The position numbers and the translations under genes were made by a program. Positions 39,494-48,778 of a stretch of 64,000 nucleotides of DNA are shown piece after piece; position 1 is the stretch's first letter, and every line of letters begins with the position of its first letter. Source of the DNA: Escherichia phage vB_EcoM_G8. The DNA is taken from the sequence record NC_054915.1; one strand, written 5' to 3'. The notes below the pieces were generated by a model, which saw nothing but the letters and a program-made list of their open reading frames with translations, ran no database searches and had not been told where the DNA came from.

Positions 39494-39997
39494 TTAAAAG
39501 TATTTTTTAAAACTCATCATAACTTTATCATCAACATCATTATCAATCTGTGCAACAAGATAGGATGACAGTTCTACTTCTTGTGGCGCGGATTGAACAT
39601 TATCAGAATTAAGATATTCACGAATCCAAGGATATGGATGTTTAACCGGAGCATCGGTAATTGGGCATGGAAGACCACACTGTTTCATACGAGATACAGT
39701 TAAGTAATCAATAAAGCTCCACATGCTATTTGTATTTAATCCAGGAACATCGCCATCTTTAAATAAATGAACTGCCCAATCTTTTTCTTGGCGGTTAACT
39801 TCCATGAAAATATCAACTGCTTCTTGTTCACACTCTTGAGCAATTTTAACCCATTCATCACCATCAGTACCGGATTGAAGTTGACGAATAATATATTGAG
39901 TGCCTTTAAGGTGAAGCTGCTCATCACGTGCAATGAACTTCATAATCTTGGCATTACCTTCCATAATTTCCATGTTCTTATGGAAGTTAAAGGTACC
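39494..39997 (-). CDS. nrdB: ribonucleotide reductase small subunit NrdB, exon 2 (5' boundary approximate)
   Basis: Translation …NMEIMEGNAKIMKFIARDEQLHL… matches NrdB C-terminal half; boundary by alignment to E. coli NrdB spacing, +/- few nt. Confidence 0.8.
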   Translation of the reverse strand, partial: GTFNFHKNMEIMEGNAKIMKFIARDEQLHLKGTQYIIRQLQSGTDGDEWVKIAQECEQEAVDIFMEVNRQEKDWAVHLFKDGDVPGLNTNSMWSFIDYLTVSRMKQCGLPCPITDAPVKHPYPWIREYLNSDNVQSAPQEVELSSYLVAQIDNDVDDKVMMSFKKYF

Positions 39998-40592
39998 GTT
40001 ATGTTCGATTGAGCTCGCTAATTCTCAACCCGTTCTCTTATGAACTGCTACATATTACTATGCAGACCAGACTATATCACAATCCCAGAGGGATTCTCCC
40101 CATTTCGAGTCGCTTGACTCTACGTCCGAAGACTAGTCGTTGAACCTTGCTTTGCAATTGTCGCCGTGCCATCGTTTATATGTTGATGGTGATAAATCTT
40201 TCTTATCACAATATGGACAATTCAATTGAATTCTATTTGGATTTAATTTACATCTGTCATTATGTTTTAGATAAAATCCAGGACCTTTACCAATGTGACC
40301 ACAGAAATCACATGTGATTTCTTTTTGTGCAGGATGGGTCCCGTTCTTAACCATTTCTAATGTTTTTGCTGATGTTCTTTTCTTATGGTCTTCCATCAGA
40401 ATCTTTAGGTAGGTCCGTCAGCATCTATCCAAATTTTTCTATAGTTCAATTGTGCATCCTCTTAAAAGTATAATCATATTATACCAATTAAAGGTGCAAG
40501 CAAAACCTTGGCTGCTAGTTTTCCTATAAAGGACTTTCCAGCAATTAAAGGAGTTTTCGATAAACGTTACCGTTTAAAGGCGCATTTTACGC
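39998..40592 (-). mobile_element. group I intron in nrdB with truncated endonuclease ORF (boundaries approximate)
   Basis: nrdB frame interrupted after RFYVSF and resumes ~595 nt downstream; contains 87-aa Cys-rich ORF. Confidence 0.75.
40133..40396 (-). CDS. truncated intron-encoded endonuclease remnant (I-TevIII-like)
   Basis: 87 aa ORF inside nrdB intron; Cys-rich ITCDFCGHIGKG…NCPYCDKK, no complete catalytic domain. Confidence 0.6.
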   Translation of the reverse strand: MEDHKKRTSAKTLEMVKNGTHPAQKEITCDFCGHIGKGPGFYLKHNDRCKLNPNRIQLNCPYCDKKDLSPSTYKRWHGDNCKARFND

Positions 40593-41264
40593 AAAAGATA
40601 CATAAAAACGAATAGCTTCTAAGGCATTAATAACGTGCAAACAGAGGTAAAGAGATTTCATTAAAGCACGTTTAGCTTCGGCTTCTTGCTTAATAGCCCG
40701 GTTTAAACGAAAGTCGGCATCAGGAGATTCTTTAGCTAGTTCTACAAATTCTTTAGCATTTTCCCATTCACGGGTTTTAGTTAAAACATCATCATAATAG
40801 CGACCGATAGATTCAGCACGTTTCATAATAGCTTCATCTAATACAATCTCATCAAATACCTTTGACGGATCAGTATAAAGATTTCGCATGATATGAGTAT
40901 ATGAACGACTGTGAATAGTTTCACTAAAAGTCCATGTAGCAACCCATGTATCAAGGCTTGGGTCTGAAAGCAATGGCATAAGTACAGCAGACGGCGCACG
41001 ACCTTGAATACTATCAAGTAATGATTGATACTTCAGATTATTAGTAAAAATATTTTGTTGATACTGAGGAAGCTTATTAAACTGTGCAGCATCCATCATC
41101 AAGTTTACTTCTTCCGGACGCCAGAAAAACGAGAGCGAACGTTCAATAAGTTCTTCAAATACTCGATGCCGTTGAATATCATAACGCGCAATACCAAGAC
41201 CTGAACCAAAAAACATAGGTTCTTTTAAAACATCGACCTGTTTAGTATTAAAAACTGTACTCAT
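40593..41264 (-). CDS. nrdB: ribonucleotide reductase small subunit NrdB, exon 1 (3' boundary approximate)
   Basis: MSTVFNTKQVDVLKEPMFFGS…EAIRFYVSF then in-frame stop inside intron. Confidence 0.8.
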
Positions 41265-42856
41265 TATTTTGTCCTGTAAACTAAATTTCCACAGTCCCAG
41301 ATTCTTCTAAGACCATTTGCATAACAATTTTCTACTTCAGTTATTGTATCATCATAATTTTTAAGCTTGTTTTTAAGCTTATGTTTCATATAGCTTGAGC
41401 GGTGAAATACCTCTCCTTTATCGACGTACCAATAACATGGCTCAGAGATATGACTAAATTCCATGACAGAGTCATAAACATTTGATAATGTACTGCACCA
41501 TCTTCGATTGCCATAAGATAGACAATTAATTCCTTTTAATAATTTTGAGGCTCCTCCTACAACGCAAACCCCTAATTTTGAACACATCCTTAAAAGTTCA
41601 TCACCCGAGCTATATCTAGATTTACCGATAGAAATAATTTGAACTAACTCATTATTGTAATAAAGTCCTTTATACGTATGAGCTCCTGAGCAAAATCCTT
41701 GAAGATGATTCTTATTAATAAATTCTTTTGCCTCATCCTTATTAACAAAACGCGCTTTGCATTTTCGGGCTGGTATTCTTTCTGATAATCCTAATTTATG
41801 CTTTATAATGGATTTCCAGATCTCTCTTTTTGTATCATCAATCCATTCATTTTCGAAGATGTGAAGTAATTGAATTCCTTGTGCTTCACACATCTCTGTC
41901 TTCATCAAATGATAAGTTTCTTTAATTTTATCTGTTTCCTTTGACCCGCTAGAATGCCAATAAATTCCATCGTATTCTATAGCCAATTTTTTCTCAGGAA
42001 TGTAAATATCTAATTCATACGGAGGAATAATTTTTCTAGTTTCTACGCAATCAAATCCTAGATCTAAAATGAATTGCTCTATAGAACTTTGAGTATAATG
42101 AACGTCAATTAGTCCTTTGGATGAAAGAGCTCTATAAGCCGTCATCCGAGAACAATTTGCTAATTGTTGTAGTTCTTCTATAGAAATTTTGTAATTGATT
42201 TTATCTAGTATATCATGATTAATATGACCGTTATTTTTAATAGATTTTCCTATAGATGAATATAACGATGCCTTATATTCTTCAGTCCAATTTAATTTAG
42301 TCTTCTTAGATTTTTCGCGAGATTTTCTAGAATTCAGAATATCAACTGATTTACCGTTTTCTATAACTTTTCTCGCTTCTTTCACGCTTTCTAATTGTGA
42401 ATTATGCGTTACCCCATATCGTTCAATTAAAGTTTTTCTATTTTTATTTCTTGAAATTTTTTGATGAGTTGTTCCATATTTTTCTAAATAATTTTTGCGT
42501 TGAAGTTCAGACAAATATTTTTTATATTTTTCTTTTCCGCCAAAATTTGTATCACGGCTTTGAATTCTCTTATCCGCGAAAAATATCCCTGCGCAGGATT
42601 TACTACATGTTGCTGGAAATACACGTTTCTTTGCTGTTTTCAGAGAAATGAAATTTCCACAAACTGCACATTTTAGATCGTTAATGTCAATGCCTTCCAT
42701 AATTTGGAACACATTGAGCTTAAAATCTATTCCATCAGTTAGAAGAGCTTTATCTTCTTCTGTTAGTCTAGATTTAAGTTTTTCTTCTCCAAATGGAAGA
42801 AACTTTCCGTTTTTGTATATATTATCAAACATAGCGTTATTCTTAGTTAACCACAT
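41264..42856 (-). CDS. large multidomain nuclease-like protein (Cys cluster, NUMOD3-like repeats, HTH, Vsr/DUF559-like core, unknown C-terminal domain)
   Basis: 530 aa uninterrupted ORF, ATG 42856; stop overlaps nrdB ATG (TAATG); motifs CAVCG…CSKSC, KYGTTHQKIS / ERYGVTHNSQ, YELDIYIPEKKLAIEYDGIYWH. Confidence 0.8.
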   Translation of the reverse strand: MWLTKNNAMFDNIYKNGKFLPFGEEKLKSRLTEEDKALLTDGIDFKLNVFQIMEGIDINDLKCAVCGNFISLKTAKKRVFPATCSKSCAGIFFADKRIQSRDTNFGGKEKYKKYLSELQRKNYLEKYGTTHQKISRNKNRKTLIERYGVTHNSQLESVKEARKVIENGKSVDILNSRKSREKSKKTKLNWTEEYKASLYSSIGKSIKNNGHINHDILDKINYKISIEELQQLANCSRMTAYRALSSKGLIDVHYTQSSIEQFILDLGFDCVETRKIIPPYELDIYIPEKKLAIEYDGIYWHSSGSKETDKIKETYHLMKTEMCEAQGIQLLHIFENEWIDDTKREIWKSIIKHKLGLSERIPARKCKARFVNKDEAKEFINKNHLQGFCSGAHTYKGLYYNNELVQIISIGKSRYSSGDELLRMCSKLGVCVVGGASKLLKGINCLSYGNRRWCSTLSNVYDSVMEFSHISEPCYWYVDKGEVFHRSSYMKHKLKNKLKNYDDTITEVENCYANGLRRIWDCGNLVYRTK

Positions 42857-42872
42857 CCTTGTGGTAATTATA

Positions 42873-45137
42873 TCATAATTTACAGGATGAACAATCTTCA
42901 GCTTTTGGAGTTTCTATTTCATAATCATCAGTACCAGAACCATCGCGGGTATTATGATAATAGAAATTTTTTCCGCCAAAATACCAAAAATACAAAAGGT
43001 CATCAATCATTATTGACATTGGAACCTTTCCTTTTGGAAAAATCTGTGGGTCATAATATGTATTTGCTGAAGCTGATTGACATACCCATTTCAGCATAAT
43101 AGCTACCTGCGTAAGATAAGGTTTATTGCCTTTCTTAGCTAATTTCCACGTATAATCATATAGGTCTATGTTATGCTCAATATTGGGCACGACTTGATTA
43201 AAGGAGCCCTCTTTTGATTCTTTAACAGAGACTGGTCCACGTGGAGGCTCGATACCGTTTGTACTGTTAGAAACTTGGGAAGATGACTCACATGGCATAA
43301 GTGCTGATAATGTGCTATTACGGATGCCAAAGAGCTTAAGGTCTTCCCGCAGCGACGACCAGTCACAAACGTATTTTGGAGCTGCGATTTGGTCAATCTT
43401 TTTATTGTACCAGTCGATAGGTAATTCGCCTCGAGACCAACGAGTGTCTGAATAATATTCGCAAGGTCCTTTTTCTTTGGCGAGCTTAATGGATGCTTTA
43501 ATGAGTCCATACTGTAATCTCTCAAATAGTTCATGTGTTAAATCGTTAGCATCTTCATAAGAAGCAAAGTTACTTGCCAGCCAAGCCGCATAGTTGGTAA
43601 CACCTACACCGAGGTTACGACGCTTTTTAGCTTTTTCTGCTTCAGGAACTGGATATCCTTGATAATCCAAAAGATTATCAAGAGCGCGAACTTGAACTTC
43701 TGCCAATTCATTAATTTTATCTTGGTCTTGCCAATCGAAGTTATCCAACACAAATGCAGATAACGTGCACAAGCCAATTTCCGCATCAGGACTATTCACA
43801 TCATTTGTTGGAATAGCAATTTCACAGCACAAGTTACTCTGACGAATGGGTGCCTTTTCACGAATAAACGGAGTATAGTTATTCGTATTATCAATGAACT
43901 GTACATAAATCCTTGCTGTTCCTGAACGTTCAGTCATGAGCAATTCAAATAGTTCACGGGCTTTAATACGCTTTTTACGAATATTAGGGTCTTTTTCTGC
44001 TGCTTCATATAATTCACGGAAACGGTCTTGGTCTTTAAAATAAGAATAATAAAGCTCGCCACCCATTTCATGCGGACTGAACAAAGTAATGTAATCGTTC
44101 TTTCCGAATCGTTCCATCATTAGATCATTCAGTTGAACACCATAATCCATATGACGAATGCGGTTTTCTTCTACACCTTTGTTATTTTTCAAAACAAGAA
44201 GATTTTCAACTTCCAAATGCCAAATAGGATAATAAGCAGTAGCAGCGCCGCCACGAATTCCACCTTGTGAGCATGATTTAACAGCAGTCTGAAAATGTTT
44301 CCAAAAAGGAATAACACCAGTATGGCGTACTTCACCCATGCCAATCTTAGAACCTTCGGCACGAATCATACCAACGTTAATACCAATTCCAGCACGTTTG
44401 GAGATATATTCAACAATTGAAGCGGAAGCCTTATTGATAGACTTTAATGAATCACCTGCCTCAATAACAACACATGAACTAAACTGTCGAGTCGGAGTAC
44501 GACAACCAGCCATAATAGGAGTTGGTAATGAAATCTGTCGAGTAGATACTGCTTCATAAAAACGGATAACGTGTTTTAATCTATCAACAGGTTCATCTTG
44601 ATGCAGTGCCATTCCAATAGTCATAAATGCAAACTGTGGAGTTTCATAAATTTGACCAGTGGTTTTATCTTTAACTAAATATTTTTCTTTTAATTGCATC
44701 GCCCCGGAATAAGTAAATTCCATATCCCGCTCGTGCTTAATTTTTGATTCTAAAAATGTAATTTCTTCTGCTGAATATTTTGACAATAATTCAGGGTCAT
44801 ATTTACCTGCATTTACACAATAAGAAATATGGTCAATAAATGAACGTGGTTCATACTGCCCATAAACATGCTTACGAAGAGCGAACATTAAACAACGTGC
44901 AGCTACATATTGGTAATCAGGCTCTTCAACCGAAATAGAATTCGCAGCGGCCTTAATGACAATAGTCTGAATATCATCAGTTGTCATTCCATCACGGAGA
45001 TAAGATTTAATATTTTCATATAATTCATAAGGATCTACTGATGTTCCTTCAGCTGCCCAAGATAAAACTTTAATAATTTTTTGTGGGTCAAAGCTCTGAG
45101 AAACACCACTACTTTTGATAACATTAATTAATTGCAT
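42873..45137 (-). CDS. nrdA: ribonucleotide reductase large subunit NrdA
   Basis: 754 aa; N-terminal ATP-cone, catalytic Cys motifs, C-terminal CSSCKL. Confidence 0.93.
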   Translation of the reverse strand: MQLINVIKSSGVSQSFDPQKIIKVLSWAAEGTSVDPYELYENIKSYLRDGMTTDDIQTIVIKAAANSISVEEPDYQYVAARCLMFALRKHVYGQYEPRSFIDHISYCVNAGKYDPELLSKYSAEEITFLESKIKHERDMEFTYSGAMQLKEKYLVKDKTTGQIYETPQFAFMTIGMALHQDEPVDRLKHVIRFYEAVSTRQISLPTPIMAGCRTPTRQFSSCVVIEAGDSLKSINKASASIVEYISKRAGIGINVGMIRAEGSKIGMGEVRHTGVIPFWKHFQTAVKSCSQGGIRGGAATAYYPIWHLEVENLLVLKNNKGVEENRIRHMDYGVQLNDLMMERFGKNDYITLFSPHEMGGELYYSYFKDQDRFRELYEAAEKDPNIRKKRIKARELFELLMTERSGTARIYVQFIDNTNNYTPFIREKAPIRQSNLCCEIAIPTNDVNSPDAEIGLCTLSAFVLDNFDWQDQDKINELAEVQVRALDNLLDYQGYPVPEAEKAKKRRNLGVGVTNYAAWLASNFASYEDANDLTHELFERLQYGLIKASIKLAKEKGPCEYYSDTRWSRGELPIDWYNKKIDQIAAPKYVCDWSSLREDLKLFGIRNSTLSALMPCESSSQVSNSTNGIEPPRGPVSVKESKEGSFNQVVPNIEHNIDLYDYTWKLAKKGNKPYLTQVAIMLKWVCQSASANTYYDPQIFPKGKVPMSIMIDDLLYFWYFGGKNFYYHNTRDGSGTDDYEIETPKAEDCSSCKL

Positions 45138-45454: not shown

Positions 45455-45671
45455 ATTGTTTTTCCGTTAAAACAGTAATATCATAGTAACAATCAGAAGA
45501 AGTTTTAACTGTAGAAATTTTATTATCAAAATACTCACGAGTCATTTTATGAGTATAATATTTTTTGCCATAAATGATAATAGGCTGTTCTGGTCCTGGA
45601 ACTTCTAACTCGCTTGGATTAGGAAGTGTAAAAAGAACAACACCAGAAGTATCTTTAAATCGTAAAATCAT
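45408..45671 (-). CDS. hypothetical protein
   Basis: 87 aa, start overlaps td stop. Confidence 0.55.
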
Positions 45672-45979
45672 ATTGCCATTTTCCCTTTAATTGCTGGATG
45701 CGATTCATAATTTTCAAGGATAAAATCTTTCGGTTTCATGTATTCAGTTAACCAGTAAAGCTGTGTTTCGGTGTCACAATTTCCAAACTCTATAGGCCAA
45801 TCAATTTTAAGTTCACACAGTTCTTTAGGCTCACGACGTAAAATTTCTTTACATTGCTCAGTATGATTCATATAGATATGAGTATTACCACCGGAAAATA
45901 TCAAATCTCCCGGAATAAGATTACACATCTTAGCCACAATATGCGTCAAGGCAGCGTACGAGGCAATGTTGAATGGTAG
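45668..45979 (-). CDS. td: thymidylate synthase, exon 2
   Basis: [39 protein letters not shown]… (ThyA C-terminal); exon1+exon2 = 286 aa. Confidence 0.9.
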
Positions 45980-46995
45980 CATTATGTTCAGATAAGGTCG
46001 TTAATCTTACCCCGGAATTATATCCAGCTGCATGTCACCATGCAGATCAGACTATATCTCCAACTTGTTAAAGCAAGTTGTCTATCGTTTCGAGTCACTT
46101 GACCCTACTCCCCAAAGGGATAGTCGTTAGGCATTTATGTGGAACCAATTCCATTTATCAGATTTTACACGATAAGTAACTAATCCAGACGAAATTTTAA
46201 AATGTCTAGCTGCATCTGCTGCACAATCAAAAATAACCCCATCACATGAAATCTTTTTAATATTACTAGGCTTTTTACCTTTCATCTTTTCTGATATTTT
46301 AGATTTAGTTATGTCTGAATGCTTATGATTAAAGAATGAATTATTTTCACCTGAACGATTTCTGCATTTACTACAAGTATAAGCAGAAGTTTGTATGCGA
46401 ACACCGCACTTACAAAACTTATGGGTTTCTGGATTCCAACGCCCGTTTTTACTTCCGGGTTTACTGTAAAGAGCTTTCCGACCATCAGGTCCAAGTTTAA
46501 GCATCTTAGCTTTAACAGTTTCAGAACGTTTCTTAATAATTTCTTCTTTTAATGGATGCGTAGAACATGTATCACCAAACGTTGCATCAGCAATATTGTA
46601 TCCATTAATTTTAGAATTAAGCTCTTTAATCCAAAAATTTTCTCGTTCAATAATCAAATCTTTCTCATATGGAATTTCTTCCAAAATAGAACATTCAAAC
46701 ACATTACCATGTTTGTTAAAAGACCTCTGAAGTTTTATAGAAGAATGGCATCCTTTTTCTAAATCTTTAAAATGCCTCTTCCATCTCTTTTCAAAATCTT
46801 TAGCACTTCCTACATATACTTTATTGTTTAAAGTATTTTTAATCTGATAAATTCCGCTTTTCATAAATACCTCTTTAAATATAGAAGTATTTATTAAAGG
46901 GCAGTCCTACAATTTAGCACGGGATTGTCTACTAGAGAGGTTCCCCGTTTAGATAGATTACAAGTATAAGTCACCTTATACTCAGGCCTCAATTA
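45980..46995 (-). mobile_element. group I intron in td carrying I-TevI
   Basis: td reading frame interrupted between …VFLG and LPFNIASY…; 1016-nt intervening segment contains I-TevI ORF. Confidence 0.85.
46127..46864 (-). CDS. intron-encoded GIY-YIG homing endonuclease I-TevI
   Basis: 245 aa MKSGIYQIKNTLNNKVYVGSAKDFEKRWKRH…; lies inside td intron. Confidence 0.93.
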   Translation of the reverse strand: MKSGIYQIKNTLNNKVYVGSAKDFEKRWKRHFKDLEKGCHSSIKLQRSFNKHGNVFECSILEEIPYEKDLIIERENFWIKELNSKINGYNIADATFGDTCSTHPLKEEIIKKRSETVKAKMLKLGPDGRKALYSKPGSKNGRWNPETHKFCKCGVRIQTSAYTCSKCRNRSGENNSFFNHKHSDITKSKISEKMKGKKPSNIKKISCDGVIFDCAADAARHFKISSGLVTYRVKSDKWNWFHINA

Positions 46996-47544
46996 ACCCA
47001 AGAAAACATCTACTGATCGTTGATACCACTGCAAATCCAAATAACCATTACGCACATTAAACTGATAGAACATATGACAGGGCGGTAATGCCATTTGATT
47101 GATTTCAGCTGGATTCCATGCTGAAACGATTTGACGTCGATCAGTTGGTAATTTTTTAATACGATCAATAGTTTCAACTAATTGATCCACACCACCGAAA
47201 TCACGCCATTGTTTACCGTATATAGGACCAAGTTCACCACTATGATATCCTAGGTCTTTAGCCTGGTTTTCATAGTTATCGTCCCAAATAGTTTTACCTT
47301 GAATAAGACTACCATGAGTGCGAAGACGTAAATCATTAACATTGGTAGAACCGGAAATAAACCATAAAAGCTCAGCAACGCATGCATTCCAGGCGAGCTT
47401 CTTAGTTGTTACTGCAGGAAAACCTTTGGTTAAATCCCAACGCAATTTAGTACCGAACAGAGCAATTGTTCCTGTGCCCGTTCGGTCATCGGTTTCATAG
47501 CCATTTTCAAAAATGTCTTTAATTAAATCTTGGTATTGTTTCAT
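46996..47544 (-). CDS. td: thymidylate synthase, exon 1
   Basis: MKQYQDLIKDIFENGYETDDRTGTGT…QWYQRSVDVFLG; in-frame stop follows inside intron. Confidence 0.9.
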
Positions 47545-47589: not shown

Positions 47590-47937
47590 TCAATACGGTT
47601 TAGCATCAAATTTTCTCTCAATTTCAGGCGTGAAATATAATTCTTTACCGCGTTTGGAAAAGCGACCAATAATATGATAATTATTCTCATCAAACGTGAT
47701 ATTACCAATATCCATAGCTTTCAACCAAATATCGATATTTCTATCCAGCTTTATGTCAAAATTCCAATACGGAGAACTATTACCGAAAATACTGCAAGCG
47801 GATTCAGTGAAACAACTGCTATAAATCTTGTCTTTAGGAACTACTAATTGATAGACACCTTTAATAAACTGAGGACCCTGCCACTTTGGCTGTTTCGCGT
47901 CTTTTTCTAATAAAATAGGGTAATAATTAAAATTCAT
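47590..47937 (-). CDS. hypothetical protein in frd-td insertion cassette
   Basis: ATG 47937 gives 115 aa MNFNYYPILLEKDAKQPKWQGPQFIKG…; no recognisable motif. Confidence 0.6.
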   Translation of the reverse strand: MNFNYYPILLEKDAKQPKWQGPQFIKGVYQLVVPKDKIYSSCFTESACSIFGNSSPYWNFDIKLDRNIDIWLKAMDIGNITFDENNYHIIGRFSKRGKELYFTPEIERKFDAKPY

Positions 47938-47957
47938 ATTTTCCGCCACGCGTTATT

Positions 47958-48778
<821 letters not shown>

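Follow-up and report, generated by a model that had tools for sequence, protein, structure and literature searches.

What occupies the gap between nrdA and nrdB in Escherichia phage vB_EcoM_G8, and is it new? In the 64,000-nucleotide stretch of record NC_054915.1 analysed here (the window), this gap holds a single 530-codon gene, which an earlier note made from the bare sequence took for a multidomain, possibly undescribed, free-standing endonuclease of the homing type at a known hotspot.

The hef gene at the nrdA-nrdB junction

The features of the locus are the following.

42873..45137, minus strand: nrdA (754 aa)
42857..42872, minus strand: 16-nt spacer from the nrdA stop to the hef ATG (alignment with phiD1)
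41264..42856, minus strand: hef, the 530-codon gene of the Hef homing endonuclease, stop codon included (open reading frame and match to U5 Hef)
start at 41264, minus strand: nrdB exon 1
41233..41264, minus strand: the first ~10 codons of nrdB in a hef-linked variant (…ACT AAA CAG GTC…, T-K-Q-V; five hef+ against three hef- genomes)

As originally described, the reading frame fills the gap from the end of nrdA to the start of nrdB; it lies on the minus strand, which the earlier note had not stated. On the sense strand the hef/nrdB junction reads ...ACA AAA TAA TG AGT..., so that the stop of hef shares one base with the ATG of nrdB (TAATG). The motifs quoted from the frame, CAVCG...CSKSC, KYGTTHQKIS, ERYGVTHNSQ, ISIEELQQLANCSRMTAYRAL, YELDIYIPEKKLAIEYDGIYWH and GIQLLHIFENEW, are all found in the translation.

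Judged by its sequence, the gene is hef, already described in the T-even phage U5 (2005), and not a new gene. A gapless, full-length pairwise alignment of the window protein with U5 Hef contains 524/530 identical residues, and the U5 record (AY262133.2), entitled "Bacteriophage U5 NrdA, Hef (hef) and NrdB genes", annotates its protein as "Hef, homing endonuclease" (ABI48935.1). Both phages have the order nrdA-hef-nrdB, the TAATG overlap with nrdB and the same domain content, and the six substitutions between the two proteins (A89S, R120H, Y123S, N174H, R176K and S417T) spare the conserved catalytic positions. The loci differ in that the window has AAG in place of an upstream ATG from which hef is annotated in U5, and in that the nrdB intron contains a long ORF in U5 but a T4-type truncated I-TevIII in the window. 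The window protein is matched by PHROG 3339, 'homing endonuclease' (E=4.7e-152), and returned no family in a search of NCBIfam; several GenBank records carry the annotation 'Hef-like homing endonuclease', and some relatives in GenBank are labelled "putative nuclease/acetyltransferase protein".

According to later papers, U5 Hef, whose name is spelled out as "homing endonuclease-like function", takes the place of mobE between nrdA and nrdB; they also report that it has endonuclease activity, cuts near its own locus and has nrdB as its target (PMC2988022; PMC3322345). These papers all cite the 2005 study for Hef. In 2011, Hef-type proteins were grouped with the Vsr-like homing endonucleases of the EDxHD family (PMC3239194). 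The description of the gene as possibly undescribed fails because a protein about 99% identical has been characterised at the same locus. A near-identical, characterised protein at this position, which the earlier note had thought of as a T4 protein, thus exists in substance, in the T4 relative U5 and not in T4 itself. What survives is the assignment to the free-standing homing-type endonucleases of the nrdA/nrdB hotspot. For the window copy, endonuclease activity and cleavage at its own locus may be inferred from this identity and from the intact catalytic residues. The 2005 study by Sandegren, Nord & Sjöberg (NAR 33:6203) reportedly found that Hef cut DNA both with and without the hef gene; homing of hef was reportedly judged 'most likely' and not demonstrated.

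In T4 the same slot is taken, as the earlier note had it, by the much smaller HNH-type gene mobE (141 aa), and it also holds nrdB.1. Hef and T4 MobE are both reported to target nrdB (PMC2988022). In sequence the two showed no similarity when compared, and a search of the window Hef for an HNH motif gave no Pfam HNH match, in line with the earlier observation that the frame lacks one.

Could the frame have arisen artificially, through a sequencing error that joined two genes, or else be the decaying and inactive remnant of a gene? An ambiguous start codon is the sole oddity that would speak for such an origin. The full-length frame recurs with 98.7-99.6% identity over 530 residues in 15 independent phage records (tblastn, phage genomes), relatives at 50-65% identity are of similar length (519-535 aa), and the conserved catalytic positions are all intact, with the six differences from U5 lying elsewhere. 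The AlphaFold2 model of Hef, computed from an alignment of 60 relatives, is confident throughout (mean pLDDT 92.3, pTM 0.68). A fusion by sequencing error, which the earlier note had kept in view, was rejected on the uninterrupted frame in the 15 records and the equal length of the relatives at 50-65% identity, and an artefact or remnant of either kind is almost certainly not what the window contains.

As to the start codon, translation may in truth begin at Met9 (42832). The alignment of more distant homologues begins only at residue 9, the model gives residues 1-6 a confidence below 50, and the hef annotation of vB_Eco_F26 begins at Met9 (522 aa). In U5, Lv5cm and ESh36 the annotated start lies 14 codons further upstream (544 aa), at the ATG that is replaced by AAG in the window.

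A search of the window for a second Hef-like gene found none. Between 41.0 and 43.2 kb, promoter-like sites did not rise above those in shuffled sequence and no terminators were detected. The element TGATATAAT lies directly after the nrdA stop, and is not specific to hef because phiD1, which has no hef, carries it too. Searched with Rfam at gathering thresholds, the region from 36 to 50 kb gave no group I intron and no other RNA family; nrdB and td are visibly split in this region despite the lack of an Rfam intron match.

Occurrence and mobility of hef

The distribution of hef at this locus is that of an optional gene. A 7-kb query around hef matches 980 phage records, only 14 of which cover at least 80% of it, and hef is carried by about 15 of the 980. 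Among the matches listed, many of the remaining records cover 77% of the query, as would be expected if they lack the ~1.6-kb hef. An empty site is seen in the Yersinia phage phiD1, in which only 51 nt and no gene separate nrdA from nrdB; in the alignment with this phage, similarity extends through the nrdA stop and a further 7 nt, is then lost, and resumes exactly at the nrdB ATG. The G+C content of hef, 31.3%, is below that of nrdA (37.4%) and of nrdB exon 1 (36.6%).

The beginning of nrdB differs with the presence of hef. Codons 7-10 (window ~41235-41246) encode T-K-Q-V in all five hef+ genomes compared (the window, U5, F26, Lv5cm and ESh36) and in none of the three hef- genomes, in which they read T-N-P-V (T2 and phiD1) or T-Q-Q-V (PhAPEC2). 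In this small sample of eight genomes, the hef-linked variant fits either a co-conversion of the flank or a change of the target site, and the first nrdB codons are a flanking marker and possibly part of the target region.

Hef and its relatives are widespread. The family comprises 1040 copies in 419 phage records (tblastn, phage genomes) and more than 2,500 database relatives. Among 121 homologues the nuclease and Mom-like part together measure 265-293 aa, whereas the region ahead of them ranges from 12 to 550 aa; with a core so constant and a front so variable, the family can be described as a constant pair of domains to which exchangeable DNA-binding heads are joined.

The presumed DNA-binding and the nuclease parts

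The protein encoded by hef is divided as follows.

42593..42670, minus strand: Cys4 zinc ribbon, FCS-type-like, residues ~63-88 (C63, C66, C84, C88; conservation and weak profile matches)
42377..42574, minus strand: helical repeat region with two 'xYG(T/V)TH' repeats, residues ~95-160, presumed DNA-binding (DUF7487 match and model)
42119..42181, minus strand: helix-turn-helix, residues ~226-246 (model and sub-threshold HTH_11)
41795..42085, minus strand: Vsr-like (EDxHD / DUF559 / MTES_1575-type) nuclease, residues ~258-354 (conserved E281, D283, E294, H301, H316, K319)
41267..41794, minus strand: predicted Mom-like GNAT domain, residues ~355-530 (conserved H384, R423, S437, N450, R452, Y461)

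The N-terminal half is presumed to bind DNA, on the basis of sub-threshold Pfam matches and the predicted model. The cysteine cluster that had been picked out by eye corresponds to the Cys4 zinc ribbon, of which C63, C66 and C88 are kept in 114-115 of the 121 homologues and C84 in 101; its profile matches, to the FCS zinc finger 2l8e (E=0.2) and to Zn_ribbon_TFIIB (E=0.22), are weak. The two repeats behind it had been taken for NUMOD3-like motifs, a reading that has to be given up: in Pfam, no NUMOD family matches the window Hef even at E<=10, and residues 95-160 weakly resemble DUF7487 (E=0.01, sub-threshold). DUF7487 is matched by 28/60 members of the Hef family, and in the model residues 94-147 form long helices. 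The suspected helix-turn-helix is seen in the model as helices 226-233 and 237-246, with HTH_11 matches that stay below threshold (E=0.05-0.12).

The nuclease itself was recognised correctly in the earlier note as a Vsr/DUF559-type PD-(D/E)xK core, with E281, D283 and H301 conserved. The resemblance of this core to DUF559 and MTES_1575 is real, though both scores fall below the Pfam gathering thresholds (MTES_1575: 22.2 bits, cutoff 38.2; DUF559: 16.4, cutoff 20.6). Of the two kinds of match that a profile search had been expected to give, the DUF559/Vsr-like one was thus obtained at sub-threshold level and the NUMOD one was not. Among the 121 homologues D283, H301, H316 and K319 never vary, and E281 and E294 hardly do. 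In the alignment with I-Bth0305I, D283 and H301 pair with D196 and H213, the equivalents of Vsr D51 and H69. The Hef nuclease is assigned to the Vsr-like "EDxHD" lineage of I-Bth0305I, within the PD-(D/E)xK superfamily, with a fold of the Vsr type. The name 'HNH endonuclease' attached to PHROG 559 is probably a mislabel.

I-Bth0305I (PDB 3r3p), the EDxHD prototype, is intron-encoded and has its nuclease domain last, together with NUMOD motifs. Hef, in contrast, is free-standing and has a zinc ribbon, DUF7487-like repeats and an extra Mom-like domain. A further difference concerns the position of I-Bth0305I D222, which is an invariant histidine (H316) in the Hef family, in a stretch where the alignment is weak.

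Taken on its sequence, the window Hef is very probably a free-standing homing endonuclease with the mode of action reported for its U5 counterpart. In a mixed infection, its N-terminal half would recognise DNA in or close to the nrdA-nrdB junction of a hef-less phage, and the Vsr-like (EDxHD) domain would cut the bound site. Recombinational repair of the T4 type would then use the hef+ genome as template, and the broken genome would acquire hef and the markers next to it.

The Mom-like domain

Named and tested twenty years ago, hef is a known gene with one modestly interesting question attached, the role of its Mom-like domain. The presence of this domain within a validated homing endonuclease is the sole new angle of the locus, and one that was partly anticipated in 2021. 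The earlier note had delimited a C-terminal region of ~170 aa that it could not place; the extent holds, and a place can now be given. As seen in profile-profile and fold comparisons only, the C-terminal third of Hef is a Mom-like GNAT domain. In a Foldseek search of the PDB with the whole Hef model, phage Mu Mom (8bv8) comes first (E=2e-6) and generic acetyltransferases follow lower down, and a profile of the Hef C-terminal domain matches a profile of 30 Mom homologues over 127 columns (E=3.2e-5, probability 73%). A BLASTP comparison of the Hef C-terminal domain with Mu Mom was not significant (E=2.8). The Pfam family Mom (PF25680) shows no match to the window Hef and is matched by 14/60 relatives, of which two exceed the curated cutoff.

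Mu Mom and the Hef domain share ~15-20% identity, and in both an insertion separates the last two strands. Whereas Mom is a stand-alone, dimeric, tRNA-dependent GNAT that modifies DNA at adenine N6, the Hef domain is fused behind a nuclease and its activity is putative. The chemistry of Mom has recently been established: glycine is transferred from a charged tRNA onto a DNA adenine. Mom residues essential or important for activity are H58, R111, S124, D149, R151 and Y159; an alanine mutant of D149 has greatly reduced activity, and W48 is required for dimerisation and activity (PMC13219725). Their counterparts in Hef were taken from the profile-profile alignment and their conservation was counted in 121 family members.

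Mom H58 pairs with Hef H384, conserved in 120/121
Mom R111 pairs with Hef R423, conserved in 120/121
Mom S124 pairs with Hef S437, conserved in 120/121
Mom R151 pairs with Hef R452, conserved in 121/121
Mom Y159 pairs with Hef Y461, conserved in 120/121
Mom D149 pairs with Hef N450, N in 93 and D in 28 of 121
Mom Y59 pairs with Hef L385, Leu in 115/121
Mom W48 (dimerisation) pairs with Hef D374, not conserved; variable, K in 62/121

In an alignment of 60 relatives, most of the invariant columns fall within the Mom-like domain and not within the nuclease. The near-invariance of the putative active-site residues marks the Mom-like domain as an obligatory partner of the nuclease, and raises the question of what it contributes. 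We consider it reasonably likely that the predicted domain engages DNA as part of target binding: it would probably grip a flipped-out adenine and thereby aid the binding or positioning of the target.

It has also to be considered that the domain is a catalytically dead structural module which serves the folding, dimerisation or positioning of the nuclease and neither binds nor modifies a base. GNAT folds often take on scaffold roles elsewhere, Asn prevails at the position of D149, and the window protein reaches no Pfam Mom score. Against this, the Mom active-site residues are almost invariant although the relatives are only 34-75% identical to the window Hef, and a pocket so nearly invariant argues against a mere scaffold, which makes a dead module distinctly unlikely. 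The near-invariance of the Mom-type catalytic residues also exceeds what a pure DNA-binding role would need.

At the other end of the range, the Mom-like domain could be enzymatically active and mark DNA as an adenine-N6 acyl (glycyl-tRNA-dependent) transferase, for example to shield the target site or the genome of its own phage, while the nuclease attacks unmarked DNA of the host or of a co-infecting phage. Such a bifunctional nuclease-modifier would extend homing and does not exclude it. The equivalents of Mom H58, R111, S124, R151 and Y159, present in 120-121 of 121 family members, are consistent with it, as is a D149 equivalent that is confined to N (93) or D (28). The same has been predicted for Mom-REase fusions of jumbo phages (Iyer et al. 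2021, PMC7824862), in which the combination of a Mom-family domain with a restriction-endonuclease fold is read as a modification-plus-restriction pair, one such phage (PA5oct) encoding five 'momylating enzymes'. Three Hef relatives with Pfam Mom matches lie on a single 305-kb contig.

Several observations weigh on the other side. The D149 equivalent is Asn here and in 77% of the relatives, W48, which Mom needs for its dimer and its activity, is not conserved (position 374), and Y59 is replaced by Leu; the change from Asp to Asn and the loss of the dimer residue argue against a simple Mom-like chemistry. In addition, a genome may carry many paralogues with distinct N-terminal DNA-binding regions at distinct intergenic sites, a pattern that fits site-specific homing better than genome-wide protection. 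Hef reportedly cuts the DNA of its own phage too (2005 study), and T-even DNA is not known to contain a modified adenine of this type. An actively modifying Mom-like domain is therefore possible but rather doubtful. Equally tentative is the extension of this idea to the Hef family at large, whose members would be two-enzyme proteins that combine Vsr-like cutting with a Mom-like H/R/S/R/Y pocket able to modify, or at least to flip and read, a target adenine.

If the domain were active, a widespread family of phage homing endonucleases would join DNA cutting to DNA modification, and this would have a bearing on how these elements escape or withstand cleavage of the genome that carries them. On the two-enzyme reading, cleavage would be coupled to a covalent mark on DNA, which might, for example, confer self-immunity on the hef+ allele or label the broken end. 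It would also unite on one family the literature on 'Hef-like homing endonucleases' and that on a 'Mom-REase restriction-modification-like system'. Within the literature searched, no publication that ties Mom or GNAT proteins to Hef or to homing endonucleases was found beyond the jumbo-phage remark. The jumbo-phage fusions have been interpreted as restriction-modification-like conflict systems and not as homing endonucleases; going by their description in words, they resemble Hef in joining a Mom-family domain to a nuclease of the restriction-endonuclease fold and in occurring in several copies per genome (PMC7824862). Hef relatives with Pfam Mom matches are found on contigs of 300 kb.

Flanks of hef

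The first codons of nrdB carry a variant linked to hef, and a promoter-like site lies at the other end of hef:

~41233..41264, nrdB codons 1-10, containing the hef-linked flank variant
42857..42885, extended -10-like TGATATAAT, across the nrdA stop codon and just upstream of hef

Codons 7-10 of nrdB read ACT AAA CAG GT(C/T) (T-K-Q-V) in all five of the hef-containing genomes compared; the same codons are ACA AAT CCA GTT (T-N-P-V) in T2 and the Yersinia phage phiD1 and ACA CAA CAA GTC in PhAPEC2, three phages that lack hef. The T-K-Q-V variant may reflect either co-conversion of a flanking marker or a change in the target site. Since the extended -10-like site is also found in hef-less phiD1, it is part of the conserved nrdA end and not of the insert, and a promoter scan of the hef region returned sites no more numerous than in shuffled sequence.

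Closest relative and family label

The hef region is closest to that of Escherichia phage vB_Eco_F26 (L004 3874..7042; 98.4% identity), in which an additional 'HNH endonuclease' gene splits nrdA in two, whereas the window lacks that gene and its nrdA is intact (754 aa). The phage protein family PHROG 559, named 'HNH endonuclease', aligns with Hef residues 61-528, nearly the whole protein (E=2.1e-77), yet Hef lacks an HNH motif. This label for the family is probably wrong and could propagate through annotations.

Split nrdB and td genes

Both genes are interrupted in the window:

39494..41264, minus strand, nrdB in two exons (40587..41264 and 39494..39973)
40133..40396, minus strand, 87-aa ORF inside the nrdB insert, 98% identical to the defective, truncated I-TevIII of T4
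45668..47544, minus strand, thymidylate synthase gene (td), split in two
46127..46864, minus strand, full-length I-TevI-like GIY-YIG ORF (245 aa) between the td parts

The nrdB exons are separated by ~600 nt, where Rfam at its gathering thresholds reported no group I intron. The intron ORF is long in U5, the source of the characterised Hef, and in phiD1, in contrast to the T4-type truncated ORF of the window. Together with hef, the ORFs in the split nrdB and td genes bring the homing-endonuclease-related genes to three within ~8 kb.

The frd-td interval

An additional small ORF lies upstream of td:

46993..47544, td exon 1
47590..47949, minus strand, 119-aa ORF with a GTG start
47958..48539, frd-like gene

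This ORF occupies the interval between the frd-like gene and td exon 1; in T4, frd and td abut.
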